Source: Candidatus Zixiibacteriota bacterium
Lineage (GTDB): Bacteria > Zixibacteria > MSB-5A5 > GN15 > JAAZOE01
NCBI GenBank assembly: GCA_043819555.1
Contig: JBDREQ010000067.1
Location: 1-63,232, forward strand
DNA: 63,232 nt
Reading direction: 5' to 3'
Positions 4,410-63,232 of the stretch are shown here, piece after piece (the first letter of the stretch is position 1; each line of letters begins with the position of its first letter). The notes under the pieces were generated by a model that was given only the letters and a program-made list of their open reading frames with translations, did no database searches and was not told the DNA's origin. Made by a program: the position numbers and the translations under genes.

Positions 4410-6656
4410 ATGAATCTTCGAAATACTATTTTGATTTTTGCAGCTCTTCTGGTCTTAGTCTTGGGGAATGCGAGAGCCGATGACTTGACGCGTAAAATTC
4501 GCGCCGCTGAGTCGGATTTAACTGTTTTTTGCCCGGTTATTGACGCTGAATATATTCAATGGTCGGCTCTGTTATATCTTAATCAGCAATACGGGGCCGA
4601 AATATACATCGGAATATTGCATCCTTCGGCTTATTTCGATTGTAAAGAGATTACAAGTTCTGATGGACAGTTTCATCTGGCGTATATCGGATACCCTTCG
4701 GTGGATTACGACAGCATGCTGGTTGACTCAGTCTGTGATGCTCTCTTTGCCGGGGGTTATCCGGATATGGCGATTTTTGGGGCGGCAGGCGCGGCCGATT
4801 CGGCTTTTATAACCTATATGCTCAGGGATATGAAGCAAAAAGCACACGATGATTCGCTCGCTCTATCTTATCTCAATCGCATATTTATCCGCACCGATAA
4901 AAACAGCGGCGGGATAGTTTTTAATGATGCCGAAATTTATGACGGGCTTAAAGACAGGGCAAATTCACTCAATCTAACTTTTTCACCCGACGGCCCCCTA
5001 GAATATAAGCCGGAAAGATTCCGATGGTATTATTTGTTAGATGTTAAAGAAATAAATTCCATCGAAACTAAGGGTGACTTTTTATCGGTGATAGATATTT
5101 TCCGGTTACCTCAAATTATTTCCCAAAATGTTATTGCCGGTCCGGAGCGGGAAAACCTGTTAAATCGATTAAACCGGTTTGAGTCCTATATTCGTTCGAG
5201 TTATAATCAACGATTGAGCCGGTCCGACCGTCTGCGTCTGTTGCTAAACGCTTACGGCGAAATATCGCGTCTGGTCGAGATGCTTGACGCCGGTTCCGGT
5301 AATTTGAAATGGACGCGGGTTCCATACAGAGCCAAAAGAGTACGATACAAAACTTCACTGGCGGTTGCTCAAGCAGTCGGGATAAACTGGTCGGCAAATC
5401 TGCACTCGAGAAATACGCCATTTGGGAAAACCGGTAAACTTGTTTTTGATCTTGAAGTGGCGGGGCCATTACCGATTGAATTGTCATATTTGAAATTCCT
5501 GCCTGAAGGACAAACGCCAGTTGAGATCGAGTCAATAGCTTGCGTCATCGCGCCTCATCAGAAGCTGCACCGCGAATACACAATTGATCTTTCCGGTATA
5601 AATCTGGAAAATGAACCTGAAAAAGAGCATCGCTTTGCGATTGCAATAACCGTCGAAGGGACGCCGATAGAATTGTTCGTTCCATATAATGAGTACGCCA
5701 ATGAGGAAATTTCTCTGGCCTGGCTGCCGGATTACGCGATCATATCTCCATTTATAGATAATGATATTAATTCACTGTCACAGCCATTCGATTGGCAGTT
5801 ATTAATTACTAAGCCGTATCAGTCAGAACTGAGGGCTCAGCTTTCGATTGATAATCCCGATGATATCATTGTTGGAAGTTATGAGAAGAATATCGTGATC
5901 TCCGCAGGCGTCACTTCTCAATTGATTGATATTCATCTGACAGCTGGCAGATCTATCGGCAATGGAGAGAGAAAAATAGGCGCCCGGTTAGTATCAAATG
6001 GCAATACGATTTCATCGACTTCAGCCGATGCCCGCATCATCCGTTTTGATGTGTCGCCTGTCCGCGATATTGCGTTTGTGCCGGATAGGACGGGACAGCT
6101 GGAAGATTTTCTGCGCATGGTCAACGTTTCCGGATTTGCCTTTACGCCGCATAGTATTTCAAGGGCAACCCTGGAAGCATACGATATGCTTATCATTGGA
6201 ACCGACGCCGATGAGGAATATATAAACGCGTTGCGCAAATCGAGCGGGAGACTGCGGAGATTCGCACGGGATGGCGGCGAGATTTTAATTTTGGGACAAT
6301 CATTCGGGTGGCCTCATGATATTTTTGATTTTATGATATGTACTTCGGAGAACGTCGGCTCAGTACCGTTAGTGATAAAAAACAAAGACCATAAACTCTT
6401 AAATGGGCCGTATGCTATTGGAGGAAACCGGCTGGCGGAAACGGCCCCTGAAATGAGCCGCTCCTGGTCGGCTATATTAGGCGCCGGTGATGAGATCATC
6501 GCCGCCGGGGAACTCGGAAGTTATTTACAGGTTACTAAAATTGGTGAAGGCCATGTCATCTTTTGCGGCTTGCCGCTATTGGATATGGTTTCAAAACTGG
6601 ACGTGGATGCAATTCATTTACTGGCTAACATATTGAATTTTGGACATGGACGCTGA
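4410..6656 (+). CDS. Secreted multidomain protein; degenerate PIG-L-like N-terminus and C-terminal class I GATase-like fold
   Basis: Signal peptide (..ARA/DD); C-terminal YDMLIIG..LRRFARDGGEILIL pattern; no HPDD motif. Confidence 0.45.
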   Translation: MNLRNTILIFAALLVLVLGNARADDLTRKIRAAESDLTVFCPVIDAEYIQWSALLYLNQQYGAEIYIGILHPSAYFDCKEITSSDGQFHLAYIGYPSVDYDSMLVDSVCDALFAGGYPDMAIFGAAGAADSAFITYMLRDMKQKAHDDSLALSYLNRIFIRTDKNSGGIVFNDAEIYDGLKDRANSLNLTFSPDGPLEYKPERFRWYYLLDVKEINSIETKGDFLSVIDIFRLPQIISQNVIAGPERENLLNRLNRFESYIRSSYNQRLSRSDRLRLLLNAYGEISRLVEMLDAGSGNLKWTRVPYRAKRVRYKTSLAVAQAVGINWSANLHSRNTPFGKTGKLVFDLEVAGPLPIELSYLKFLPEGQTPVEIESIACVIAPHQKLHREYTIDLSGINLENEPEKEHRFAIAITVEGTPIELFVPYNEYANEEISLAWLPDYAIISPFIDNDINSLSQPFDWQLLITKPYQSELRAQLSIDNPDDIIVGSYEKNIVISAGVTSQLIDIHLTAGRSIGNGERKIGARLVSNGNTISSTSADARIIRFDVSPVRDIAFVPDRTGQLEDFLRMVNVSGFAFTPHSISRATLEAYDMLIIGTDADEEYINALRKSSGRLRRFARDGGEILILGQSFGWPHDIFDFMICTSENVGSVPLVIKNKDHKLLNGPYAIGGNRLAETAPEMSRSWSAILGAGDEIIAAGELGSYLQVTKIGEGHVIFCGLPLLDMVSKLDVDAIHLLANILNFGHGR

Positions 6657-8418
6657 CAAAAGCGGATTATTCGCACATTTATTACCCCTGGTCAAAAAAA
6701 ATACTCGATACATAGTGATTGGAGGGGTAGCGGCTATTTTTGCCAATGGCCTGATGCTGATAAATCCTTATCTGATCAAGCTGGCTTTTGAAGCCATCGA
6801 ATCGAAGCAGGCGATGGATGTTATATTCAGGTTATGCATGTACATGGCTGGTTTGTCCGTTGCCGCGGGGTTGTTTCGCTTTGCCATGAGGCGGACAATA
6901 ATCTGGGCATCACGAAAGATTGAATACGATTTGCGGAACGTGATGTTCGCCAAATGGCTCGATCTTGACGCCTCATATTATAACCGAAAGCGAACGGGCG
7001 ATTTGATGGCTCATGCCACCAATGATATCGAGGCGGTTCGAATGATGACGGGACCGGGAATAATGCATATTCTCAATACCATTATTTCGGTCGTGATTGC
7101 GGTCGCGTTTATGGTTACGCTTTCGGTCAAACTTACTTTATTTACCGTATTGCCACTTCTTCTCCTGGCGCTGGCGTATAATCGGCTGGGGCAATTGGTT
7201 CATAAAAAGTATTTGATAATACAGAATCACTTCGCTTTCATGACGGCGCAGGTTCAGGAAAACCTGGCTGGCGTGCGAGTGATTAAAGCGTACGGCCGGG
7301 AAAAATCAGAAATCGATCGCATGGCCGCAACATCACGCAAATATGCCGATATGAACCTCGACATGATGAAGATTTACGGATTTTTCCGTCCCCTTCTGTT
7401 TGCCATCGCAGGCGGCGTCTCCCTTTTGGTTTTATACGTTGGAGGACGGGAAGTCGGCGCCGGAGTATTTTCACTGGGGACACTGGTCGCTTTTTTGGGA
7501 TATCTTGTTTGGCTCGTCTGGCCGATGATGGCTCTGGGGTGGGTCATATCGCTTTACCAGCGAGGTACGGCTTCGCTTGAACGCATTAATAAAATTCTTA
7601 ACGCCGAACCGATGGTTTCTGATAGCGGGAAAACGGGGAAAAAACATCGCGAGATAAAAGGCAAGATTGAATTTAGAAATTTATCATTTGCTTATCCCTC
7701 AATCGAAGATAAAAACCCTGAAAATATTTTGCACGATATAAATGTGACAATCGATGCCGGCACCAGGCTGGGGATAACCGGTCCGACCGGTTCGGGGAAG
7801 ACTACGATGGTGTCTCTAATTCCGCGATTATATCCGGTATCGAAAGGACAGCTTCTCATTGACGGCATTGATTGTACCCAACTTTCCATTGGAGCACTGC
7901 GCAATTCGATTGGATTCGTCCCACAGGAAACATTTCTGTTTTCCGATACTTTGGAGGCGAATATATCGTTTAGCCGCGATTCGTTTGAACAACAAAAAAT
8001 AACCGACACTGCTCGATTGGCGGCTTTGGATGAGGATGTCGAATCATTTCCCGAAAAATACGAGACGATGCTGGGCGAGCGGGGAATCACTCTTTCGGGC
8101 GGGCAAAAACAACGGACGGCGCTGGCGCGGGCAATATTAAAATCGCCGTCGATAATCATTCTTGATGACGCCACCAGTTCGGTCGATACCGAGACGGAGC
8201 AGCAGATATTTGAAAACCTCGACCGAGTTCTTCCCGGACGAACTTCGATTATAATTTCCCATCGCGTTTCCAGCCTGATGAAATGCGATAAAATTATTTA
8301 TCTCGAAGACGGCCGGATCGTGGAAGAAGGCGATCATTTTAAATTGATAAGCCAAAACGGCGCCTACGCCGCATTGTATCGACGCCAGTTGATGGAAGCA
8401 AGCCTGGAGAAAATGTAA
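6646..8418 (+). CDS. ABC exporter, TMD+NBD subunit 1 (degenerate Walker B)
   Basis: Six TM helices, [23 protein letters not shown]. Confidence 0.95.
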   Translation: MDADKSGLFAHLLPLVKKNTRYIVIGGVAAIFANGLMLINPYLIKLAFEAIESKQAMDVIFRLCMYMAGLSVAAGLFRFAMRRTIIWASRKIEYDLRNVMFAKWLDLDASYYNRKRTGDLMAHATNDIEAVRMMTGPGIMHILNTIISVVIAVAFMVTLSVKLTLFTVLPLLLLALAYNRLGQLVHKKYLIIQNHFAFMTAQVQENLAGVRVIKAYGREKSEIDRMAATSRKYADMNLDMMKIYGFFRPLLFAIAGGVSLLVLYVGGREVGAGVFSLGTLVAFLGYLVWLVWPMMALGWVISLYQRGTASLERINKILNAEPMVSDSGKTGKKHREIKGKIEFRNLSFAYPSIEDKNPENILHDINVTIDAGTRLGITGPTGSGKTTMVSLIPRLYPVSKGQLLIDGIDCTQLSIGALRNSIGFVPQETFLFSDTLEANISFSRDSFEQQKITDTARLAALDEDVESFPEKYETMLGERGITLSGGQKQRTALARAILKSPSIIILDDATSSVDTETEQQIFENLDRVLPGRTSIIISHRVSSLMKCDKIIYLEDGRIVEEGDHFKLISQNGAYAALYRRQLMEASLEKM

Positions 8419-50181: not shown

Positions 50182-53166
50182 ATTAATTCGATCGATATCA
50201 GACAGTCGTTTTTGGATTTTTTCATTGAGCGGGGGCATTCGCATCAGCCGTCGTCGCCGGTTATCCCGCTCGATGACCCGACGCTTTTGTTTGTCAACGC
50301 CGGGATGAATCAATTCAAGGATGTTTTTACAGGCAGCCGCAAAGTATCATACAAGAAGGCGACGACATCGCAAAAATGCATTCGCGCCGGCGGCAAGCAC
50401 AACGATCTGGAAAACGTCGGCCAAACCAGCCGCCATCATACGTTTTTTGAGATGTTGGGGAATTTTTCATTCGGTGATTATTTCAAAGAGGAAGCGATAG
50501 TTTTTGCCTGGGATTGGGTGACCAAAGTTCTGGGCCTGCCCAAAGACAGATTATTTGCGACGGTGTTTGAAACTGATGATGACGCGTTTGCTCTATGGGA
50601 AAAGATCGCGCCGGAACTCAAAAACGGACGTATCCTCCGGTTTGGTAAAGAGGATAATTACTGGTCGATGGGCAACGTCGGGCCGTGCGGTCCATGTTCG
50701 GAAATTCATTATGATATGGGCGAGCATCTGGCCAAAAACGATCCTCATGCCTGGATAAATACCGAAAATGACCGCTATGTCGAATTCTGGAATTTGGTGT
50801 TCATGCAATACGACCAACCGTCCGACGGCGGTGATATTGTTCCATTGCCAAAGCCATCGGTGGATACCGGAGCGGGTCTGGAACGGATCGCGGCAATTAT
50901 GCAGGGTGTTGATTCCAACTATGAGACCGATTTGTTCACGCCATTGACGGCACAAGTTGCCGATATAACCGGGATCAAGTATGAACCTAAAAAGGCACGA
51001 TGTACCTCGCATAGAGTCATTGCCGACCATGTTCGGGCGCTGTCGTTTGCTCTGGCGGACGGATGGGGGTTTTCCAGCGATAGGAGAGGGTCCGTTCTGC
51101 GGAGTATATTAAGACGGGCCGCACGGCATGGGCGAAAATTGGAATACTATGATCCAATAATTTTTCAACTAGTTCCAGCTTTAGTTGACATTATGGGCAA
51201 GTATTACCCTGAGCTAAAAACAGGACAACATTTAATACAGACTTTAATAAAACGCGAAGAGGAATCATTCAGTAATTTGTTGGACAATGCATTAAGCGTA
51301 TTTTCTACCGAGACACAGCGACTCAAGTCTGCCGGAGAAATGTTAGTTTCTGGAGAAGTGATATTTAGATTAAATACTACGTATGGAATTCCAATTGATA
51401 TGATTGCCGTTATGGCTAGAGATGAGAACATGCAATTGGATATGGAGGGATTTAACAAATTATTCCAAGCACATAAGAAAGAATCGAGATTAGGTTCAAA
51501 TTTCGGCCAATCCGGTGAACAAATGAAATCATTCTTAAATTCGTTCATTGCATCAGGTATTCTTCAGCCTCCCACAAGAATAAATAATGCGTTTACTATG
51601 GATGCCCCATTCGATACTGCAATAGCCTCTGGTAGTATTTCAAGGGACTTTCATGATGTTTCATTGGTTCTTAACGAAATACCTAGCTATGATAATTTGA
51701 GTACTAATGCAACCATTAATATCACAGGTGATAATTTTTTAATGAAAGTTGAAGGCATTAAAGTCCATGAAGGAATTTACATCCATACAGGAACTCTTTT
51801 ACGAGGTAATATCGATGATAACCTCATCGGGAAAAAAGTTAAAATATCGTTTGAAAAAGATGATTCTGGAGGGAAAGATGAAATTAATTTTACTGAAATT
51901 AAAACCACAGAATTTATTAGGGGAGATGATACAACTATTTTTGAAGTCAAGGCTCATATAAAAGACGCAACTTTTATTGATGATAGGGCAGAGATTATAC
52001 TCGATAAGACACCATTCTATGTTGAATCAGGTGGACAGATTGGTGATGTAGGGATGATTGTTTCAGCCAATGGATCAATAAGGGTAACGCATGTAGTTAA
52101 TAGGCAAGATATTTTATTTCATGTCGGAAAGATTCAAATTGGCGGTAAAGAAGATTTTTCTCCCGGTACTAAAGTCAAAGCTCGCATCGACAAGCACCGT
52201 CGCAAAGATATAATGCGCAATCATACGGCAACGCATCTTTTACACGCAGCTCTTCGCAGTGTTCTCGGCGATCATGTTAAGCAATCGGGTTCTCTGGTTG
52301 AACCGGAACGACTGCGTTTTGATTTTGCTCATTTTCAGGCGATGACACCGGGTGAAGTTTTACATGTCGAAAAACTCGTCAATGAACATATCCTCGAAGC
52401 GACTCCCGTTTCCACCGAAATAAAATCTTCAGAAGAAGCAATGAAATCGGGAGCGATGGCGCTGTTTGGAGAAAAATATGGCGATGAGGTGCGGGTGGTT
52501 TCGGTTGGCAGTTTTTCCAAAGAATTGTGCGGGGGAACGCATGTGAGCAACACGGCCGAAATCGGTTTGTTTATGATTACCGAAGAAACGGCGATTGCAT
52601 CGGGTGTACGCCGCATTGAGGCCGTAACCGGGCGCAGAGCGGTAGAGATAACTCTGCAGAATAAACAGGCGGTCAATGATTCCGGAATGCTTCTAAATGT
52701 TCCTTCGTCTGAGTTGCCCGATGCGATAAAGAAAGTTTCGTCAAACCTGAGCGATGCGCAAAAGGAAATTAAAAAGCTCAAGAGCGAGCGGTTTTCAGGT
52801 GGCGGCGGTCAATCGGTCGGCCAGTCGGAGAAAATTGGAGATACCGTGTTTAGTCATCATGATTTTGGTGAAACAGATCAGGATAGTATGGCCGGTTGGT
52901 CGGATTCACTCAAGGGTTCACATGATGCAACAGTATCACTGGCAGTAGGATTATTGAACGGCAAAAAAACTTTTATCGCGTCAGCCTCAAAGAAAGCAAT
53001 TGAATCAGGGTTCGATACCGGAAAACATTTTGGAGAATTGATTCGGGAACTCGGCGGGCGCGGAGGCGGCAAACCGGGTTTTGCTCGTGGCAGTTTACCG
53101 GATGATCTCGATTTTGTAAAACTGATAGAAAAAGCAAGAAAGAAATTACAGGAAGTAGTTTCATAA
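50182..53166 (+). CDS. alaS: Alanine--tRNA ligase with internal insertion; probable ATT start
   Basis: DPTLLFVNAGM, QKCIRAGGKHNDL, HHTFFEMLGNFSFGDYFK, TPFYVESGGQ, NHTATHLL, ELCGGTH, GGRGGG; conserved N-terminus (I)NSIDIRQSFLDFF lies upstream of the called TTG at 50212. Confidence 0.95.
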   Translation: MNSIDIRQSFLDFFIERGHSHQPSSPVIPLDDPTLLFVNAGMNQFKDVFTGSRKVSYKKATTSQKCIRAGGKHNDLENVGQTSRHHTFFEMLGNFSFGDYFKEEAIVFAWDWVTKVLGLPKDRLFATVFETDDDAFALWEKIAPELKNGRILRFGKEDNYWSMGNVGPCGPCSEIHYDMGEHLAKNDPHAWINTENDRYVEFWNLVFMQYDQPSDGGDIVPLPKPSVDTGAGLERIAAIMQGVDSNYETDLFTPLTAQVADITGIKYEPKKARCTSHRVIADHVRALSFALADGWGFSSDRRGSVLRSILRRAARHGRKLEYYDPIIFQLVPALVDIMGKYYPELKTGQHLIQTLIKREEESFSNLLDNALSVFSTETQRLKSAGEMLVSGEVIFRLNTTYGIPIDMIAVMARDENMQLDMEGFNKLFQAHKKESRLGSNFGQSGEQMKSFLNSFIASGILQPPTRINNAFTMDAPFDTAIASGSISRDFHDVSLVLNEIPSYDNLSTNATINITGDNFLMKVEGIKVHEGIYIHTGTLLRGNIDDNLIGKKVKISFEKDDSGGKDEINFTEIKTTEFIRGDDTTIFEVKAHIKDATFIDDRAEIILDKTPFYVESGGQIGDVGMIVSANGSIRVTHVVNRQDILFHVGKIQIGGKEDFSPGTKVKARIDKHRRKDIMRNHTATHLLHAALRSVLGDHVKQSGSLVEPERLRFDFAHFQAMTPGEVLHVEKLVNEHILEATPVSTEIKSSEEAMKSGAMALFGEKYGDEVRVVSVGSFSKELCGGTHVSNTAEIGLFMITEETAIASGVRRIEAVTGRRAVEITLQNKQAVNDSGMLLNVPSSELPDAIKKVSSNLSDAQKEIKKLKSERFSGGGGQSVGQSEKIGDTVFSHHDFGETDQDSMAGWSDSLKGSHDATVSLAVGLLNGKKTFIASASKKAIESGFDTGKHFGELIRELGGRGGGKPGFARGSLPDDLDFVKLIEKARKKLQEVVS

Positions 53167-55765: not shown

Positions 55766-55810
55766 TAATGACTTGACAAGAATAGTATTGAGCATATATT
55801 GAATCCGCTT

Positions 55811-56038
55811 ATGGCAAAGAAAAAAACAAAATCTGAAGGCGGTTTACCGTTTGGACCGAAAAACTGGGCTTTTATGGGCGCTGGCCTGGTATCGATAATT
55901 ATCGGTTATATTTCTCTCAGCAGCGGCTCGATAACCCTGGCGCCAATCCTCTTGGTTTTGGGTTATTGCGTGCTTTTCCCGATCGGTATAATAGTTAAAG
56001 ACCGACCGGATGAAGAAATAAGTGAGGATGAAATTTAG
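55811..56038 (+). CDS. Small two-TM protein (DUF3098-like)
   Basis: FG.KNW......IIIGY...SITLAPILLVLGY. Confidence 0.75.
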   Translation: MAKKKTKSEGGLPFGPKNWAFMGAGLVSIIIGYISLSSGSITLAPILLVLGYCVLFPIGIIVKDRPDEEISEDEI

Positions 56039-56079
56039 CGGCAGTCATTGGAAATAGTAGAGGTGACGCCCGGTTTAAT

Positions 56080-56157
56080 GGGCAGTTAGCTCAGCTGGTT
56101 CAGAGCACCTGCCTTACACGCAGGGGGTCACTGGTTCGAATCCAGTACTGCCCACCA
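56080..56157 (+). tRNA. tRNA-Val(TAC)
   Basis: Acceptor GGGCAGT/ACTGCCC-ACCA, anticodon arm CCTGC-CTTACAC-GCAGG, TTCGAATCC T-loop. Confidence 0.97.
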
Positions 56158-56220
56158 TGAATTGAAGGTTAAGAAAAGATTTTTAAAAAAACATAGATAA
56201 AATATCCGAAAAGTATAGCC

Positions 56221-56298
56221 GGGGTTGTAGTTCAGTTTGGTTAGAACGTCTGCCTGTCACGCAGAAGGCCGCGAGTTCGAGTCTCGTCAACCCCGCCA
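56221..56298 (+). tRNA. tRNA-Asp(GTC)
   Basis: Acceptor GGGGTTG/CAACCCC-GCCA, anticodon arm TCTGC-CTGTCAC-GCAGA, GTTCGAGTC. Confidence 0.97.
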
Positions 56299-57840
56299 TT
56301 TATCACTCTCAGCAAACTCTGGATGTTTTATAAGATATTCCAGAGGCTTCCCCGAATCTCCAAGCGAAAAGACAGAAATTTTTAGGGTGTCTTCCCCCAA
56401 GACAACCTCTTGAACCATAAGCTGTAACAAGCGGGTTTGCTCGTCCGGGGTCAATTCATTGTAGATTGCCCGGAAATCTCGAAGTGTTTTCGTGAGCAGA
56501 TCAGTATCGATTTTGTAATCTTTTAGCTGCCCAATTTCAAATTCCAAGCGTTGGATTTGATCTTCCAGCTGTTCTTTCCTGGTCTCCAGCTCAGGGAGCC
56601 GACCGGACATGGCTTTTGGTAGGTCGCCATGTTTTTCCACGTACTTAACCATGTTATCTATAGATTTCTGAACCGGACGAAGCTCCCTTTTGAGACCGTT
56701 CAATTCCTTAGTCTTACTTTTCGAATTAGTAGTCGATGTCTTGTTCGCTTTGCGAACCGCTTCTTTGATAACCGCTTCATCGGTACCAATTTCACAAAGT
56801 TTGTTGACCACCGCATCTTCAATAGCCCGAGCACCAATCTTTCTCACCTTGCATTCATCTTTTGAAAATTTCGAGACTTTGGTGCAGCGGTAATAAAGAT
56901 ACCTGCCACTCTTTGCCGGGCTCGGTGTCATCATCGAACCGCAGTCACCACACTTCAGGATTCCCTTGAGGCGGAAATCGTACTTGTTCTGAGAGGGCAC
57001 GGTGCGAGTGCGTTTGTTCTTCTCCATCATCTTCTGGACATGATTGAACCTTTTAGCGGTCACAAGAGGTTTGTGCTTTCCCTTAAACTCTTGTCCACCG
57101 AATGTCGTTTTACCAATATATAGACGGTTTGATAGAATATAAGTAATCGACCATTTAGAGAATTTCCCTTTTTTCTTACTCTTAGTTCTATACCCCATGC
57201 TATTGATTTCCTTAGCCACAGCAGCAGGTGAACCAAGTTTGACGAAGAGATTAAAGATCTTCTTAACGACCGTTGCCTCAGTCTTATGTGGGATGAGTAA
57301 GCATTTTTGTTCCTTGTGCCTTTCGTAGCCGAAAGGTGCTCTTCCTCCGTGCCACAGTCCTTCTTCAGCCTGAGACAACATCTTTGCCCGTGTTCTCTCC
57401 CGGATTGTCTCCAGTTCGAACTCTGCAAAGCTCATAAGGATGTTGATGAAAAATCGCCCATGAGCGGTTGTAGAGTTAAGTTCCTGTGTGGCGCAAACGA
57501 ACTGGCAACCATGCTCCTGCATGATTTCGTAGAGTGTCCAAAAGTCTTTGATATTTCTAGTCAGCCGATCCATTTTGGTTGTGACTACTACATCGACTTT
57601 GTCCTGTTTGATAATCTCGATGAGACCGTTAAGACCTGGACGGTCCGTATTGCCGCCCGAGCTGAGGTCTTTGATTGAGGTGATATACTTCCAGCCATTC
57701 GGTTCTTGACTTGAGATATAGGCTCTGCAGACCTTCTCTTGGCTCTCCAGAGAAGAATACTCAGCTCTTCTGTGCTGATCTTCAGTCGAAAGCCTCACGT
57801 AAACGTAACAGCGTTTCTTTTCATTGCCGTTTGATTTCAA
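56287..57840 (-). CDS. Large serine recombinase (integrase)
   Basis: YVRLSTEDQ catalytic Ser, SG...DRPGL, DRLTR, AEFE...IRERT, G.APFGY, N..YIG, H.PLV, C..CG..M...YYRC zinc ribbon, coiled coil. Confidence 0.95.
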   Translation of the reverse strand: MKSNGNEKKRCYVYVRLSTEDQHRRAEYSSLESQEKVCRAYISSQEPNGWKYITSIKDLSSGGNTDRPGLNGLIEIIKQDKVDVVVTTKMDRLTRNIKDFWTLYEIMQEHGCQFVCATQELNSTTAHGRFFINILMSFAEFELETIRERTRAKMLSQAEEGLWHGGRAPFGYERHKEQKCLLIPHKTEATVVKKIFNLFVKLGSPAAVAKEINSMGYRTKSKKKGKFSKWSITYILSNRLYIGKTTFGGQEFKGKHKPLVTAKRFNHVQKMMEKNKRTRTVPSQNKYDFRLKGILKCGDCGSMMTPSPAKSGRYLYYRCTKVSKFSKDECKVRKIGARAIEDAVVNKLCEIGTDEAVIKEAVRKANKTSTTNSKSKTKELNGLKRELRPVQKSIDNMVKYVEKHGDLPKAMSGRLPELETRKEQLEDQIQRLEFEIGQLKDYKIDTDLLTKTLRDFRAIYNELTPDEQTRLLQLMVQEVVLGEDTLKISVFSLGDSGKPLEYLIKHPEFAESDKWRG

Positions 57841-58010
57841 CTACGCTTCCCCCGGCCTGTCTTCACATTGTCTTCGATAAGTTTTTCTACCCAATCCTGA
57901 ATAGTAAGATTCTCATTGGCAACTTGTATCCGCAGTTTCTGGTGTAGCTCTTCACTCAGTCTAATGTGAATCATCTTCGGTTTCGTATGAGTCGTTTTTT
58001 CTCTCGGCAT
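57837..58010 (-). CDS. 57-aa ribbon-helix-helix DNA-binding protein (absent from the ORF track)
   Basis: Manual translation MPREKTTHTKPKMIHIRLSEELHQKLRIQVANENLTIQDWVEKLIEDNVKTGRGKRS; TAAGGCGG SD; TGA stop overlaps the integrase TTG start. Confidence 0.85.
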   Translation of the reverse strand: MPREKTTHTKPKMIHIRLSEELHQKLRIQVANENLTIQDWVEKLIEDNVKTGRGKRS

Positions 58011-58036
58011 ATCCATCCGCCTTACTTAGAATGTTC

Positions 58037-58052
58037 AGTTATAAATATAACT
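58037..58052. promoter_or_regulatory. Perfect inverted repeat, candidate operator in the divergent promoter region
   Basis: AGTTATA-aa-TATAACT. Confidence 0.5.
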
Positions 58053-58190
58053 TGCTTTACATTTGAAATCCAGCTAATTTATATGTTATAGGCAGGACTC
58101 AGAATAACCATGAGTTATGTTGAAGTTCCTTTTTCAGGAGGTCGAAGATTCGTGCTTGGGCATAAGACTAAATAGCTATAGGAGGGAAAA

Positions 58191-58562
58191 ATGGCAGACA
58201 AGAAAGTGGTTTTTGTGGCGTTCGCAATTGAAGACGAGAGGCAAAGGGATTTTCTAAAAGGTCAATCCCTAAATACGGCTTCACCTTTCGAGTACATCGA
58301 TATGTCAGTTAAGGAACCATATGACTCTAATTGGAAAGAGCGAGTTCGCACGCGGATTCGACGCTCGGATGGAGTTATAGCCCTTGTGAGCAAGAATTCT
58401 CTTACTTCAAGCGGCCAGAAATGGGAGATCTCTTGTGCGAAAGAAGAGAAGAAAAAGATTCTCGGTATCTGGGCCTACAAGGACGATCGAACCAACGTCG
58501 CTGGAGTTAACACAGTCGTATGGACATGGCCGGCGATTGAGAAATTCATCGACAGTTTGTAG
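58191..58562 (+). CDS. Thoeris ThsB-like TIR-domain protein
   Basis: VFVAF, W...[17 protein letters not shown]....WEI..A....K.ILGI with catalytic Glu; AGGAGG SD. Confidence 0.85.
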
Positions 58563-58579
58563 AAAGTGGAGAAACAACA

Positions 58580-59554
58580 ATGCGGATAGCACTTATTGTT
58601 GGTATAAATTTCTACGATCATGGTGGCCCACTCTTTGGGTGCGTCGATGATGCCCATGCCGTTAAGGCGGTTCTGGAGCGTCACGATGGTGGTGCTGTAA
58701 ACTTCGATTGCATGCTTGAAACTGGCACGGGGCCAGCCGATCGCGTAGATAGAGGTGATCTTAAGGACAAGATTGAGACGTTGTTCAACACAGAGTCGGA
58801 GATTGCACTATTTTATTTCGCCGGACATGGTCATATAGAGGCGACCGGTGGCTATATTCTGTCAACAGACTCAAAACGTGGGGATGAGGGTGTATCACTA
58901 TCTGAAATATTGACTTTAGCGAACGAATCCCCAGCTAGGAACAAAGTAATCGTTTTGGATAGCTGTCACTCCGGTATTGCAGGGACTCCATCTTCGAGTG
59001 GCCAGTTGGCGACTTTGGCGGAAGGGTTAACCGTTTTGACGGCCTCGACGAAGGATCAATATGCATCTGAAGAAAATGGAAGGGGTGTATTCACAACTCT
59101 TTTTGTTGACGCACTCAATGGAGCAGCGGCCAACCTTACCGGTGACATCACTCCTGGCAGCGTCTACGCTCATATAGATCAATCGCTCGGTGCCTGGGAA
59201 CAACGACCGGTATTTAAGACTAATGTCAAACAGTTTGTTTCCTTGAGGAAGGTGGCGCCACCGATTCCTACGTCAGAATTACGTCGGCTTACTGAGTTTT
59301 TCCCTTCGCCTGGATTCGAGTTTCCTCTCGATCCAACCTACGAACCCGAACTGAAGGGACGAGACACTGGTATGCCTCCGCCAAACCCTGAAAACACACA
59401 GATCTTTGCAGTACTTCAAAGGTATAACCGACTAAATCTACTTGTCCCGGTGGGTGTTCCTCACATGTGGAACGCTGCTATGGAGAGCAAGACCTGTAAA
59501 CTGACTGCACTCGGCGAACATTATCGGCGACTTGTGGAGAGGAATCGAATCTAA
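58580..59554 (+). CDS. Caspase-like (peptidase C14) protease, type IV Thoeris-like effector
   Basis: [24 protein letters not shown] (His), VLDSCHSG (Cys), GVFT; C-terminal extension. Confidence 0.9.
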
Positions 59555-59760
59555 ACAACTATCTGCCTAAGAACTGGATGTGAACTATGGCGGAATGCCG
59601 TGCTCTCTTCGTGCCACTTAGATAGCCTGCCGATTGTCCTTCTTAGAAAGCCATGTGATACACCACCTTCTTTTACTATCCAGTAGCATTATCACAACCA
59701 ATCTCAGCAAAAAATAGACAAAGACCAACGACATGTTCAAGTGCCTAATCTTACCAAGAC

Positions 59761-61071
59761 TTAACACAATTTCAGTTCATCAGAAAGTCCCCTAATAGGA
59801 TCTACCATCCACGCGTCTATTCGTGATTCCACGGCGGCTCTTTCTTTTCCATATCGCATTCGTGATAGTTGAACAGCCGCGTCTCGGTGACTTTCTACAA
59901 TAGCCGGCTCTGGCAGCGTCCGAGCGCTGAAGGCGTCAGTCGTCTTTCCGTCAATAGAGAGCTTGACATAAATATCGTATGCTGAGAGCGATTGCAGGTC
60001 GGAAGCCTTGAAAATGGGCCAATACTCGCGTTCAAGGTACTCTCCATCCTCCGCTCCTATTCGGAATGAAATAGCTGTGCCCACATTGCCAAATACGGCA
60101 GATTTTAGCTGTAATGGTAGTTGGGCAAGGTATTGGTGTGCCAAGACCAAATGCAGGCCGAATTTGCGCATTTCAGAGAGTGTGTGAGCAAAATTGTCAG
60201 AGGCAAAGCTCTGAAATTCATCAATATACACAGTAAACGGCTCCCTTTTAGTTGGTGCTATGTCTGATCGGGACATGGCTGTTAAAAACAGCTTAGAGAC
60301 TATGAGTGATCCTAAAAGACCAGTGTTATCCTCACCAAGACGTCCCTTAGACAGATTCACGATCAGAATCTTGCGCGAGTCCATAGCGGATCTGAGATCG
60401 ATCTTGTTCTGGACCTGCCCGAGTATATTTCGCATCACAGGCACCGATAGGAACTGGCCGACCTTGTTTTGGATAGGGGATATTGTCTCTGTCCTAAAAA
60501 CTTTCGGATATAACTCGTACTCCATTTGCCAGAAAGTACGGACAACCGGGTCCTGCACCCGACTGAGAACCATAGACCGGAATTCAGGGTCTATAAGCAA
60601 TCTGGGAATCGAGAGAAGAGTGTGACCACCACACTCAAGTAAAGCGAGGATTGTATTCCGCAGTATGTACTCCAGCCGCGGACCCCATGAATCAGACCAG
60701 ATCTTCTTGAAAATGTCTACCAGCTGTGACGCAATCAAATGACTACTGGCAGTCTCACCACCATCAAATAGGTTAATTCCCACAGGATAATTGATATCAG
60801 CGGGATTGATGTAGATGACATCCGTCATGCGTCGTTGGGGGACGTAATCTAATAGCTGTTCAGCTAGGTCGCCATGAGGATCAATTAACGCAACACCTTT
60901 ACCTCGTTGAATGTCCTGAACCAACATGTTGAGCAGCAGTGTTGACTTTCCCATGCCGGTTTGACCCACGACATAGACATGCCGTTGCCGGTCATGATCT
61001 TTAATGCCGAAGCGTTGCCTCTTATTGCGATAGTTGGTCTCACCTAGGATTGTAATTTTCCTATTTTCCAT
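59761..61071 (-). CDS. VirD4/TrwB-like P-loop ATPase without TM anchor
   Basis: RH.YVVGQTGMGKS, IDPHGD, YIDEFQ, EMRKFGL.L.LAHQY..QL, GNVGT...FR.G. Confidence 0.88.
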   Translation of the reverse strand: MENRKITILGETNYRNKRQRFGIKDHDRQRHVYVVGQTGMGKSTLLLNMLVQDIQRGKGVALIDPHGDLAEQLLDYVPQRRMTDVIYINPADINYPVGINLFDGGETASSHLIASQLVDIFKKIWSDSWGPRLEYILRNTILALLECGGHTLLSIPRLLIDPEFRSMVLSRVQDPVVRTFWQMEYELYPKVFRTETISPIQNKVGQFLSVPVMRNILGQVQNKIDLRSAMDSRKILIVNLSKGRLGEDNTGLLGSLIVSKLFLTAMSRSDIAPTKREPFTVYIDEFQSFASDNFAHTLSEMRKFGLHLVLAHQYLAQLPLQLKSAVFGNVGTAISFRIGAEDGEYLEREYWPIFKASDLQSLSAYDIYVKLSIDGKTTDAFSARTLPEPAIVESHRDAAVQLSRMRYGKERAAVESRIDAWMVDPIRGLSDELKLC

Positions 61072-61221
61072 ATCGCACCACCTTAACAGAAGTTAATTCA
61101 ATTGTCGATGCACCAACAGTTGCCTATTGAGGCAATTGACCAATTCCGGCAATCTGCTAAGCTCCAGACTGATCACACAAAACAGTTCTTTTTACAATCA
61201 CTCAAACCAAGGAGGACAGTC

Positions 61222-61911
61222 ATGTCTGGAAATGGTAATCTGGTAAAGACGATTGAAATCAAAGATCGTCAGGGTCGTATTATTGCGACTGAAGAAGTTG
61301 TCACGTATGCCGGCCTACTTAGTCTGGCACATGATCAGGGACTTAAGAAGATTGAAACTTCTTTAGTGCAGATACCTGATCAATCCAACGGTCAGATGGC
61401 AGTGTTCCATGCCGTTGTGGAAACCGAAGCAGGGATCTACAAGGGTCATGGTGACGCTAGTCCGGATAATGTCGCGTCGAGGATAGTACCTCACATAATC
61501 CGGATGGCCGAAACCCGTGCTAAAGCTCGAGCCTTGCGAGACGCCGTAAACATTGGCGTAGTAGCTATGGAGGAGCTTAATTTGGAAGGAACTGGCAAGC
61601 CCGGTAACGGGAACTCTCCAAAGAATTCACAGAATCAGACGGACAACACAAACCACGATATTCGGAGCAGATCCAGACCACAGGGCGAGTCAAATCAAGC
61701 CGCTGAAAACGGTCAACTTATGACCGATGCTCAGCGACGCTATCTGTTTCGTTTATTGGCTGAAAGAAAGATCGAAGGTGATGATGCCAAGGTACACTTG
61801 CTACAACGAACCAATGTTGTATCTCTTGAAAAAATCACCAAGACCCAGGCTAGCACTCTGATCGACGAGATGGTCGGTTCAACGAAGTCAGCCGAGGAGG
61901 TACCGTTTTGA
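61222..61911 (+). CDS. Putative single-strand annealing protein (Rad52/RecT superfamily-like)
   Basis: Start MSGNG after AAGGAGG; YAGLL.LAH, G.GDA.P.NV, RMAETRAKARALR; linker, T.AQ helical domain, EEVPF C-terminal tail. Confidence 0.65.
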   Translation: MSGNGNLVKTIEIKDRQGRIIATEEVVTYAGLLSLAHDQGLKKIETSLVQIPDQSNGQMAVFHAVVETEAGIYKGHGDASPDNVASRIVPHIIRMAETRAKARALRDAVNIGVVAMEELNLEGTGKPGNGNSPKNSQNQTDNTNHDIRSRSRPQGESNQAAENGQLMTDAQRRYLFRLLAERKIEGDDAKVHLLQRTNVVSLEKITKTQASTLIDEMVGSTKSAEEVPF

Positions 61912-62693
61912 ATACCAATTGGAACGGTTATCCAAGAGATCATGTCTCAGCTTCGCAAATCAACGTCTACTTGATGTGTCCGCTCAAATACCGCTTTGCG
62001 TATGTTGACCAACTGCCGCGACCGTTCAAATCGATCGATCTGGCTCTCGGTACAGCATTTCATGCGGCGGTCGAATGGTGGCACAAACACAGAAACAACG
62101 GTTCATCACCTGATGCTGAAGATGTGTCAAGAATTCTATCAGCTGATCTACTTGCGCAAGCGGAGGAAACTCTTCACTTCAAAGCTGGTAAGACCCTGGA
62201 GGATGCTATTAGTCTTGGTAAGCAGCTTATCACAATCTACGTCAAAGAGTATCGAGGCAAGACGGTATATGATACGGAAGTTTCGTTTCGTGTTCCCCTT
62301 GTCGATCTGGATACTGGAGAGGAATTGGAGTTACCGCTTGTTGGTTACTTTGATCTTCTCGAGGAGGATGACACAGTTGTGGAAACCAAGACAGCAGCTC
62401 GTGCTTATGATCATTTAACGATCCTAAACCACCTGCAACTGACAGCCTATGGATATGCTTATCGTATTCTACATGAACGCGATGCAAACCTGCGTCTGGA
62501 TGTTGTCACGAAGACCAAGCAACCGCGAATGCAGTCAGTCGAAGTGTCACGAAATGAGTCAGACATGGTCAGGTTCTTTCATCTTGTAAAATCGGTCACT
62601 GGCGCGATTCAGAATCGCTGTTTCCATCCTAATCATGGGTGGCAGTGTAGCAACTGTGAATTCGCCCAACCATGCCGAAATTGGAAGGGATGA
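61908..62693 (+). CDS. PD-(D/E)XK (Cas4/AddB-like) nuclease with Fe-S staple
   Basis: S.SQI..YL.CP, G.AFH, E..F, G.FDL...E.KT, QL.AY, C..C.F...C. Confidence 0.88.
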   Translation: MNTNWNGYPRDHVSASQINVYLMCPLKYRFAYVDQLPRPFKSIDLALGTAFHAAVEWWHKHRNNGSSPDAEDVSRILSADLLAQAEETLHFKAGKTLEDAISLGKQLITIYVKEYRGKTVYDTEVSFRVPLVDLDTGEELELPLVGYFDLLEEDDTVVETKTAARAYDHLTILNHLQLTAYGYAYRILHERDANLRLDVVTKTKQPRMQSVEVSRNESDMVRFFHLVKSVTGAIQNRCFHPNHGWQCSNCEFAQPCRNWKG

Positions 62694-62694
62694 T

Positions 62695-62997
62695 ATGGAA
62701 CTTGTAAACGACGAGATTCGCAAAGACCTACCTCCACTCTACTCAATGGAATCTGAGTCCGATCCAACACTCCGAGTGAAATTCTTCACTCCGGATGCGA
62801 ACTGGACTTGGTATGTCATCGAATTCGATGGCGATGACCTTTTTTTCGGTCTTGTAATCGGGTTGGAAACAGAGTTAGGATATTTCCGGCTTTCTGAGCT
62901 TCAGGAAATTCGAGGCCCACTCAATCTACCTATTGAGAGAGACTTGTACTTTACCCCCGTTCCTCTTTCACACGTCCACCAAATACGACGAGTTTGA
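62695..62997 (+). CDS. DUF2958 family protein
   Basis: VKFFTPDANWTWY..E.D....FGLV.G.E.ELGYF.LSEL..IRG.L.LPIERD.YF. Confidence 0.88.
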   Translation: MELVNDEIRKDLPPLYSMESESDPTLRVKFFTPDANWTWYVIEFDGDDLFFGLVIGLETELGYFRLSELQEIRGPLNLPIERDLYFTPVPLSHVHQIRRV

Positions 62998-63012
62998 AAG
63001 AAGAATATACCC

Positions 63013-63051
63013 AAGAGGGCTTAGGATCTAATCTTAAACCCTCTTTTTTTT
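63013..63051 (+). terminator. Intrinsic terminator after DUF2958
   Basis: AAGAGGG...CCCTCTT stem followed by a T run. Confidence 0.75.
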
Positions 63052-63232
63052 CTTAGAATACAAAAAAGCAACATTCTGCAACAAGCTCTTGACAAGTGGA
63101 GTGTTATATCGTTTGTTATAGCATGTGATAACCGACCGCAAAGGCGCTGATCAGGAGAAAACTATTGAAATCTCAAAGTGATGATGCCAATGCAGGCTCA
63201 GCAAATCTGATTCTTCAACTTCGCCAGACGCT

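Follow-up and report, generated by a model that had tools for sequence, protein, structure and literature searches.

Does the two-gene locus at positions 58191-59554 of contig JBDREQ010000067.1 encode an anti-phage defence system, and through which signal and which effector would such a system act? The window in this work is the whole stretch of DNA that was analysed, which is 63,232 nucleotides (nt) in length. The locus consists of a gene for a small TIR protein and a gene for a caspase-like protease of the C14 family. Taken as a whole, the pair is very probably a type IV Thoeris pair that acts through a protease activated by N7-cyclic ADP-ribose (N7-cADPR). The original prediction, which had been made from the sequence of the window, assigned the locus to this class, and that assignment is upheld: the architecture and the catalytic positions agree with those of the published class, and the protease is homologous over its full length to a near-copy of the published PsCaspase. 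What is new here is the host and the genomic setting, while the system class and the minimal TIR are already published. The features of the pair are listed below.

58191-58562, plus strand: thsB-like TIR gene for a stand-alone TIR of 123 amino acids (aa), a predicted phage sensor and synthase of a signal derived from nicotinamide adenine dinucleotide (NAD+), with catalytic Glu79.
58580-59554, plus strand: gene for a thsE-like C14 peptidase of 324 aa (open reading frame (ORF), Pfam, PADLOC, and AlphaFold2 (AF2) model).
58580-59215, plus strand: protease domain, aa 1-212 (Peptidase_C14), with the His83/Cys129 dyad and with Asp24 and Asp127 at the positions of the metacaspase S1-pocket aspartates.
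59216-59554, plus strand: C-terminal domain, aa 213-324 plus the stop codon, without known family, a predicted N7-cADPR-binding and dimerisation domain.

Both genes and the spacer of 17 nt between them are as they had been described from the sequence. The TIR gene stands first and ends with the stop codon TAG at 58560-58562, and the caspase gene starts with ATG at 58580 on the same strand. The ATG of the TIR gene is preceded by GGAGGG, which is Shine-Dalgarno-like, and the ATG of the caspase gene is preceded by GGAG.

The TIR protein matches ThsB_TIR (PF08937) over residues 8-96 with 34.9 bits (cut-off 21.2) and an E-value of 2.1e-8, and this is the sole Pfam family over its cut-off. The PADLOC model of ThsB also matches the TIR protein (3.3e-6). 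In Foldseek, the TIR model comes closest to 8fz9, a TIR protein of Bacillus cereus (TMq 0.80, E 1.7e-6), and the next matches are DNPH1-type hydrolases, SARM1, MyD88, and E. coli ThsB. The PDB sequence search with the TIR protein gave no meaningful match, and type IV Thoeris proteins were absent from the PDB Foldseek matches of both the TIR model and the caspase model. The catalytic glutamate, as read from the translation, is residue 79 within K-W-E. A catalytic W-E motif had been proposed for this protein, and the glutamate half of it stands. Glu79 is invariant in all 41 aligned partner TIRs, which were picked from the 75 TIR-bearing loci described below to cover all identity classes, whereas the preceding Trp is retained in the closer TIR classes only.

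The protease matches Peptidase_C14 (PF00656) over residues 1-212 with 57.1 bits (cut-off 21.4) and an E-value of 2.7e-15, and it matches the PADLOC 'caspase' model (1e-18). The His-Cys dyad is intact as had been claimed, with His83 in A-G-H-G and Cys129 in D-S-C-H-S-G as read from the translation. Among 64 diverse homologues, His83 is invariant, Cys129 is at least 90% conserved, and Asp24 and Asp127 are conserved. The AF2 model of the protease, built from the 64-sequence alignment, has a predicted local distance difference test score (pLDDT) of 96 and a predicted template modelling score (pTM) of 0.91. Its Foldseek matches at probability 1.00 are MALT1 paracaspase, caspase-11, caspase-4, caspase-1, and metacaspases, and the search against viral structures gave giant-virus metacaspases only. 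The PDB sequence search with the protease gave only marginal matches to metacaspases (best E 0.0031). In the alignments with metacaspase-4 and MCA2, Asp24 and Asp127 face aspartates that in metacaspases line the S1 pocket and favour a basic residue at P1. The placement of both aspartates fits a basic P1 residue and would lend indirect support to the predicted cleavage after arginine. The EACC1-associated caspase family (NCBIfam NF047832) was also considered for this protein and was rejected, as its match of 95.8 bits is below the curated cut-off of 140.

The C-terminal extension, which had been estimated at about 100 aa, measures 112 aa (residues 213-324). The C-terminal domain has no match to a Pfam family, a profile of 33 C-terminal domains retrieved 0 PDB sequences at E<=10, and the Atlas search gave scores of 0.84-0.86, below the lead threshold of 0.9. 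The domain has 21 invariant columns in the 33 sequences and accompanies the protease domain in almost every full-length relative. The search for the caspase among 50%-identity representatives gave 7,573 matches at E<=0.001 and 471 matches at E<=1e-30. Since most of the 150 representatives listed cover all 324 residues, the protease domain and the C-terminal domain travel as one unit.

By sequence comparison, the window pair is orthologous to type IV Thoeris (ThsB/ThsE), a system that has been validated. This system has been reported from Pseudomonas sp. 1-7, where it consists of PsTIR/ThsB and PsCaspase/ThsE (Rousset et al., bioRxiv 10.1101/2024.10.24.620036; Science 387:510, 2025). The names ThsB and ThsE for type IV Thoeris are those of Yirmiya et al. 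The PsTIR E79Q and PsCaspase C129A substitutions each abolish defence, the TIR makes N7-cADPR, and the activated protease cuts many proteins after arginine (Rousset et al., 10.1101/2024.10.24.620036). The metabolites of EcTIR also activate PsCaspase (Rousset et al.), and the signal is therefore common to diverged members of the family. It has further been reported in the literature that sensing requires a T6 capsid vertex protein, which alone is insufficient.

Chen et al. (PMC13243611) print the sequences of PsTIR (123 aa) and PsCaspase (328 aa) in their Supplementary Data 1. The window TIR and the printed PsTIR share 92 of 123 residues (~75%) by hand count, without gaps, and both have Glu at position 79. 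A locus from a Thiobacillus metagenome-assembled genome (MAG), denoted L034, was used as the stand-in for PsTIR and PsCaspase, to which its proteins are by eye ~93% (TIR) and ~88% (caspase) identical. The window caspase aligns end to end with the caspase of L034 with 199/328 identities (61%) and an E-value of 8e-156, and the sole gap is one of 4 residues in the C-terminal domain. The window TIR aligns with the TIR of L034 with 92/123 identities (75%) and an E-value of 2e-69. The numbers of the catalytic residues are identical in the window proteins and the Ps proteins (E79 of the TIR and C129 of the protease). The detection rule of Rousset et al. asks for a caspase homologue and a PF13676 or PF08937 protein with at most one gene between them, and the window pair has adjacent genes, a PF08937 TIR, and caspase homology (via L034). 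The E-values and the conserved pairing place the pair far beyond chance. The minimal architecture, which had been put forward as a novelty, is not one: PsTIR is also 123 aa long, and a 'short TIR-domain protein' is already part of the description by Rousset et al. (10.1101/2024.10.24.620036). No structure of a caspase effector is apparent from the titles of the literature on N7-cADPR.

The mechanism that is proposed for the window pair follows from its orthology with the systems of Pseudomonas sp. 1-7 and E. coli 328. Phage infection would be sensed by the 123-aa TIR, which would use its Glu79 to make N7-cADPR, a cyclic signal, from NAD+. This signal would bind the caspase-like protein, probably at the C-terminal domain, in a dimer, and the dimer step is adopted from the published AlphaFold3 (AF3) model of Rousset et al. 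The bound signal would switch on the His83/Cys129 protease, which is predicted to cut many cellular proteins after arginine. This proteolysis would stop the infected cell, or kill it, before it releases phage progeny, if the pair is active in its host as predicted.

Both proteins belong to large families. The word-index search with the caspase as query gave 7,890 proteins at E<=0.001, and with the TIR as query it gave 7,645. The 120 caspase matches listed are 322-325 aa in length and 83-100% identical to the window protein, and the few that are named come from Chloroflexota, Desulfobulbus, and Nitrospira. For the TIR, the 120 matches listed have identities of 86-95%, and the names among them belong to Planctomycetota, Chloroflexota, and an archaeon. 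GTDB species genomes were also scanned with a 12-sequence alignment as the query, and 540 relatives were confirmed. The locus counts in this work refer to the best 80 of them (L001-L080).

The two genes were found as a conserved pair among these relatives; the original prediction had named the lack of such pairing as an outcome that would refute it. A TIR or TIR-like ORF lies beside the caspase in 75/80 loci from ~20 phyla, which include bacteria of the candidate phyla radiation (CPR) and an archaeon. In 61/80 loci, a tblastn match to the TIR immediately precedes the caspase gene on its strand, no more than 60 nt away. A further 11/80 loci have an adjacent upstream ORF over the ThsB_TIR cut-off (9 of the 14 loci without a tblastn match, plus L009 and L020), and the TIR is therefore directly upstream in 72/80 loci overall. 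The TIR lies downstream on the opposite strand in L024 and L025, and L032 has a truncated TIR-like ORF of 96 aa that is under the ThsB_TIR cut-off.

The other five of the 80 loci (L022, L030, L037, L067, and L072) have no TIR that was found by tblastn or by Pfam on the neighbouring ORFs. The neighbour ORFs of L022, L037, and L067 have no Pfam family at E<=0.01, two neighbour ORFs of L030 match only unrelated Pfam families (DoxX and Abhydrolase_6), and PADLOC gave nothing on the neighbour ORFs of L022, L037, L067, and L072. These five caspases may have no partner at all, or may be effectors that work with partners of another kind. The upstream ORFs of L037 and L067 are 383 and 190 aa in length and are without annotation. 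The caspase frame of L072 is open for 344 codons further upstream; the extension of this 673-aa ORF is without a Pfam or PADLOC family, and Peptidase_C14 is the sole Pfam match of the ORF. The 174-aa ORFs downstream of the pair in L044 and L054 are unrelated to each other (E 0.87).

Near relatives of the window caspase (~77% identical to it) pair with very different TIR classes, which are 30-45% identical to the window TIR or are recognised by Pfam only. Examples of such loci are L009, L010, L013, L014, L020, L021, and L024. Two TIR genes are present in L014, L020, L021, and L024 (two tblastn matches each) and in L009 (by Pfam). Partners that are at least 65% identical to the window TIR were denoted class A, and the distribution of this class was compared with a quick maximum-likelihood tree of 81 caspases with midpoint root and support values from the Shimodaira-Hasegawa-like approximate likelihood ratio test (SH-aLRT). 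The class A partner requires at least 8 changes on well-supported branches of this tree, and TIR partners have been exchanged repeatedly on a conserved caspase. The window caspase groups with sequences from Acidobacteriota, Bacteroidota, Moraniibacteriota, Verrucomicrobiota, Latescibacterota, and Pseudomonadota in the same tree.

At the nucleotide level, the window is no more than 74.5% similar to the closest loci, and this similarity ends at the borders of the two ORFs (~58178-59554). The proportion of synonymous differences (pS) between window 58191-59554 and seven close loci (L001, L002, L004, L005, L007, L016, and L031) is 0.71-0.90, which is saturated, and the proportion of nonsynonymous differences (pN) is 0.05-0.15 (Nei-Gojobori). 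These values indicate very strong purifying selection on both proteins, which is unusually strong for defence genes. With pS saturated and pN low, the high protein identity across phyla reflects strong purifying selection on an old and widely transferred cassette, and not very recent transfer. The class A TIRs are 65-91% identical to the window TIR in the 50 class A loci, with pN of 0.05-0.11. The TIR is more conserved than the caspase in most class A loci, for example in the Rhodococcus locus L056 (TIR 76% vs caspase 58%).

Defence sensors normally diversify. The strong constraint on class A TIRs across ~20 phyla could mean that they respond to a common infection cue. It is doubtful that the class A TIR detects a cue that is shared by widely different phages or belongs to infection as such, and would thus be a near-universal portable sensor without host-specific cofactors. 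Candidate cues would be a conserved feature of the capsid vertex or of the HK97 fold, or a change in host physiology.

The family is also found on mobile elements. The full-length match to phrog_18397 in PHROG has an E-value of 1.9e-83, and two records of the phage collection carry the family. Plasmid records with the family number 89, of which 49 are full length. Among 5,426 complete E. coli genomes, seven carry the family on plasmids. Six of these plasmid matches are the same partial stretch, which corresponds to window 58198-58951 with 71.6% nucleotide identity, and the seventh plasmid has the TIR gene only. The E. coli plasmid NZ_CP041112.1 (L081, locus 5995-6763; record H1) has an intact 123-aa TIR gene followed by a caspase gene that is annotated as C-terminally incomplete, and the surroundings of this locus consist of IS26, ISCR2, and remnants of resistance genes.

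The genomic setting of the window pair is described by the features below.

56221-56298, plus strand: tRNA-Asp(GTC) (ARAGORN; Rfam tRNA 71.9 bits), the probable integration site.
56287-57840, minus strand: large serine recombinase of 517 aa (Pfam Resolvase, Recombinase, and Zn_ribbon_recom; phrog_95 integrase 6.8e-111).
57837-58016, minus strand: ribbon-helix-helix (RHH) protein of 59 aa whose gene overlaps the start of the recombinase gene, probably a regulator or a factor of the excision-directionality type.
58017-58190, no strand: divergent intergenic region between the RHH gene (minus) and the TIR gene (plus), the presumed promoter region of the operon, with GGAGGG at its 3' end.
59761-61071, minus strand: TraD/VirD4/HerA-like P-loop ATPase (Pfam, PADLOC, NCBIfam, and PHROGs).
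61102-61911, plus strand: 269-aa protein without assigned family (orf269), an ORF in the presumed element.
61908-62693, plus strand: PD-(D/E)XK Cas4-like exonuclease (Pfam, PADLOC, NCBIfam, and PHROGs).
62635-62997, plus strand: DUF2958 protein (Pfam, PADLOC, NCBIfam, and PHROGs).

The pair had been placed right next to an integrase module. A recombinase does adjoin it at a tRNA gene, but it is specifically a large serine recombinase, and the RHH gene lies in between. The catalytic motif R-x-S-T of the recombinase is found at residues 16-19. The 3' end of tRNA-Asp(GTC) contains the stop codon of the recombinase and the four codons before it, as though the tRNA gene received its end from the element. 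The RHH protein has weak matches only, to Pfam RHH_10 (under its cut-off) and HicB (23.3 bits vs cut-off 21), its PHROG matches are to an Arc-like repressor and a HicB-like antitoxin, and its gene is separated from the TIR start by 174 nt. The P-loop ATPase matches the TrwB, TraD, and HerA models, phrog_5156 (3.9e-57), and PADLOC 'mad8' (1.3e-18). The genes at 59761-62997 resemble a phage or conjugation backbone, and they would be the cargo or the backbone of the presumed element. The upstream flank consists of housekeeping genes (AlaS, PcrB-family, SIS-domain, and Wzy_C), which are followed by tRNA-Val and tRNA-Asp, and the Rfam scan gave these two tRNAs only.

The region beside tRNA-Asp looks like an integrated mobile element with its far end beyond the window. 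Within 55900-63232, the 3' end of tRNA-Asp does not recur as a direct repeat, and the guanine-cytosine (GC) content of the element does not differ from that of the flank. The RHH, ATPase, orf269, PD-(D/E)XK, and DUF2958 genes of the window have no tblastn match in any of the 80 loci, and the recombinase has weak tblastn matches in 4/80 loci.

The host was characterised through AlaS in the flank. The best named relatives of AlaS are Zixibacteria MAGs with at most 66% identity, and the listed relatives of both defence proteins are 83-95% identical. The AlaS similarity supports a Zixibacteria-like host, which agrees with the uncultured lineage that had been suggested earlier, and we know of no cultured representatives of this candidate phylum. 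AlaS (50212-53166) has 984 aa, and most of its listed relatives are shorter by ~100 aa (~830-900 aa). Among those relatives, the best local alignments cover 42-56% of AlaS, and only one Zixibacteria protein of 974 aa covers 98%, which suggests a lineage-specific insertion.

Several findings weigh against a type IV Thoeris pair that acts through N7-cADPR, and they are considered here together with the other explanations of the locus. The link from the window to the Ps proteins consists of a hand count and the stand-in L034, and not of a tool alignment with PsTIR and PsCaspase. Ligand binding by the C-terminal domain is a hypothesis of Rousset et al. (10.1101/2024.10.24.620036). A single TIR cluster can include members of Thoeris types I, IV, and V (Yirmiya et al.), and TIR similarity alone therefore leaves the signal unfixed. 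The window caspase, at 61% identity to the Ps-like caspase, lies in the opposite half of the midpoint-rooted quick tree. The last two findings, together with the pairing of family caspases with several very different TIR classes, would suit a system of the same architecture with other chemistry, where the TIR makes 3'cADPR, 2'cADPR, canonical cADPR, or histidine-ADP-ribose (His-ADPR) and this subclade of caspases has a C-terminal domain adapted to that signal. Such chemistry is quite improbable, as the TIR has ~75% identity to PsTIR from end to end, the invariant columns show good conservation of the C-terminal domain across the family, and the EcTIR metabolites cross-activate PsCaspase. The lysates of newly described Thoeris types also fail to activate ThsE (Yirmiya et al.), and N7-cADPR thus looks specific to TIR-caspase systems. 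The remaining adverse findings concern the TIR protein and the expression of the pair. The match of the TIR protein to TIR_2 (PF13676) is marginally below the cut-off (27.9 bits vs 28), its AF2 model has moderate confidence (pLDDT 79), and its fold is also like that of DNPH1 or nucleoside deoxyribosyltransferase-type hydrolases by Pfam and Foldseek. The small protein could on these grounds be a hydrolase of that kind (DNPH1- or nucleoside 2-deoxyribosyltransferase-like) that is unrelated to the protease and is not a signalling TIR, as the weak Pfam matches to Nuc_deoxyrib_tr (19.1 bits, cut-off 28.8) and cpYpsA and the many DNPH1 structures among the Foldseek matches would allow. This is hardly credible for a protein that has ThsB_TIR as the only family over cut-off, a bacterial TIR as the best structural match (TMq 0.80 vs ~0.6 for DNPH1), a tight conserved operon with the caspase, and such identity to PsTIR.

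The sigma-70 promoter scan gave 1 site vs 3.1 expected from shuffles, and no promoter or terminator was detected above the shuffles. This absence, and truncated copies elsewhere such as the E. coli plasmid caspase and the 96-aa TIR-like ORF in L032, would be expected if the window pair were a silent or decaying remnant without function. A remnant is very improbable, however, because both ORFs are full length with ribosome-binding sites, every catalytic and invariant residue of the family is present, pN is far below pS against the seven relatives, and the caspase model is very confident (pLDDT 96). The genomic setting bears on a different question, which is whether the pair chiefly serves the mobile element, through addiction or stabilisation or as a weapon against competing elements or superinfecting phages, with host defence as a by-product. 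The distance of 174 nt to the recombinase and RHH module at the tRNA site, the occurrence of the family in phrog_18397, in plasmid records, and in the phage collection, and the nucleotide similarity that ends at the ORF borders with neighbours that are not shared, as expected of a cassette that moves between elements, all favour such a role. The role is nevertheless unlikely as the chief one. No antitoxin-like partner is evident, expression of a published member from a plasmid is by itself enough for protection and causes little or no toxicity when phage is absent (Rousset et al., 10.1101/2024.10.24.620036), and the cargo status is deduced for an element whose far end lies beyond the window. 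A benefit to the element is also compatible with the defence mechanism, as it concerns who benefits.

With a type IV Thoeris pair as the preferred explanation, this work adds an intact locus of this class from a Zixibacteria-like phylum, on a serine-recombinase element at a tRNA gene. The locus can serve annotation work and surveys of the routes by which defence cassettes spread, and it leaves the knowledge of the system unchanged. The strong constraint, the higher conservation of the TIR than of the effector, and the swapping of TIR partners bear on what a sensor-less TIR recognises. The locus gives no special handle on phage sensing or on the step of caspase activation.

The window pair is closest in organisation to the system of Pseudomonas sp. 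1-7, which is also a two-gene operon with the TIR first, a 123-aa TIR, and Glu79. The caspase of the window has 324 aa compared with the 328 aa of PsCaspase, and a loop of its C-terminal domain is 4 residues shorter. The window caspase also belongs to another subclade of the caspase tree than the caspases similar to that of Pseudomonas sp. 1-7, and its setting differs in the Zixibacteria-like host and the serine-recombinase element at tRNA-Asp. The system of E. coli 328 (EcTIR and caspase) is of the same type as the window pair, and the EcTIR product activates PsCaspase. The copy on the E. coli plasmid NZ_CP041112.1 has a truncated caspase, whereas the window copy is intact.

The ThsB proteins of type I Thoeris (B. 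cereus 8fz9 and EcThsB 8wcf/8v6t) share the stand-alone fold, the catalytic Glu, and PF08937 with the window TIR, but the sequence identity to these structures is only 13-20%. The partner of ThsB in type I Thoeris is the SIR2-SLOG NADase ThsA that is activated by 3'cADPR, whereas the partner in the window is a caspase-like protease. Type I Thoeris was rejected for the window pair, as no SIR2 or SLOG protein is present among the genes scanned at 55799-62997 and the neighbour is the C14 protease.

The metacaspases and paracaspases (AtMC4 6w8s, TbMCA2 4af8, Yca1 4f6o, and MALT1) share the C14 fold and the His-Cys dyad with the window protease. The aspartates at the S1-pocket positions are common to the window protease and metacaspases and fit cleavage after basic residues. 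The window protease has only marginal sequence similarity to these proteins (best E 0.0031), lacks the Ca2+-regulated p10/linker organisation, and has a unique C-terminal domain and a predicted activating signal that is derived from a nucleotide. Caspase-fold proteases have been reported to act in abortive anti-phage immunity (Discussion of Rousset et al., 10.1101/2024.10.24.620036). PCaspase of type III-B CRISPR with SAVED-CHAT, the gasdermin-activating proteases, and the EACC1-associated caspase are also caspase-fold executioners or activators. Those proteases are switched on by proteolytic cascades or other sensors, whereas the protease of the window pair would be switched on by the product of its TIR.

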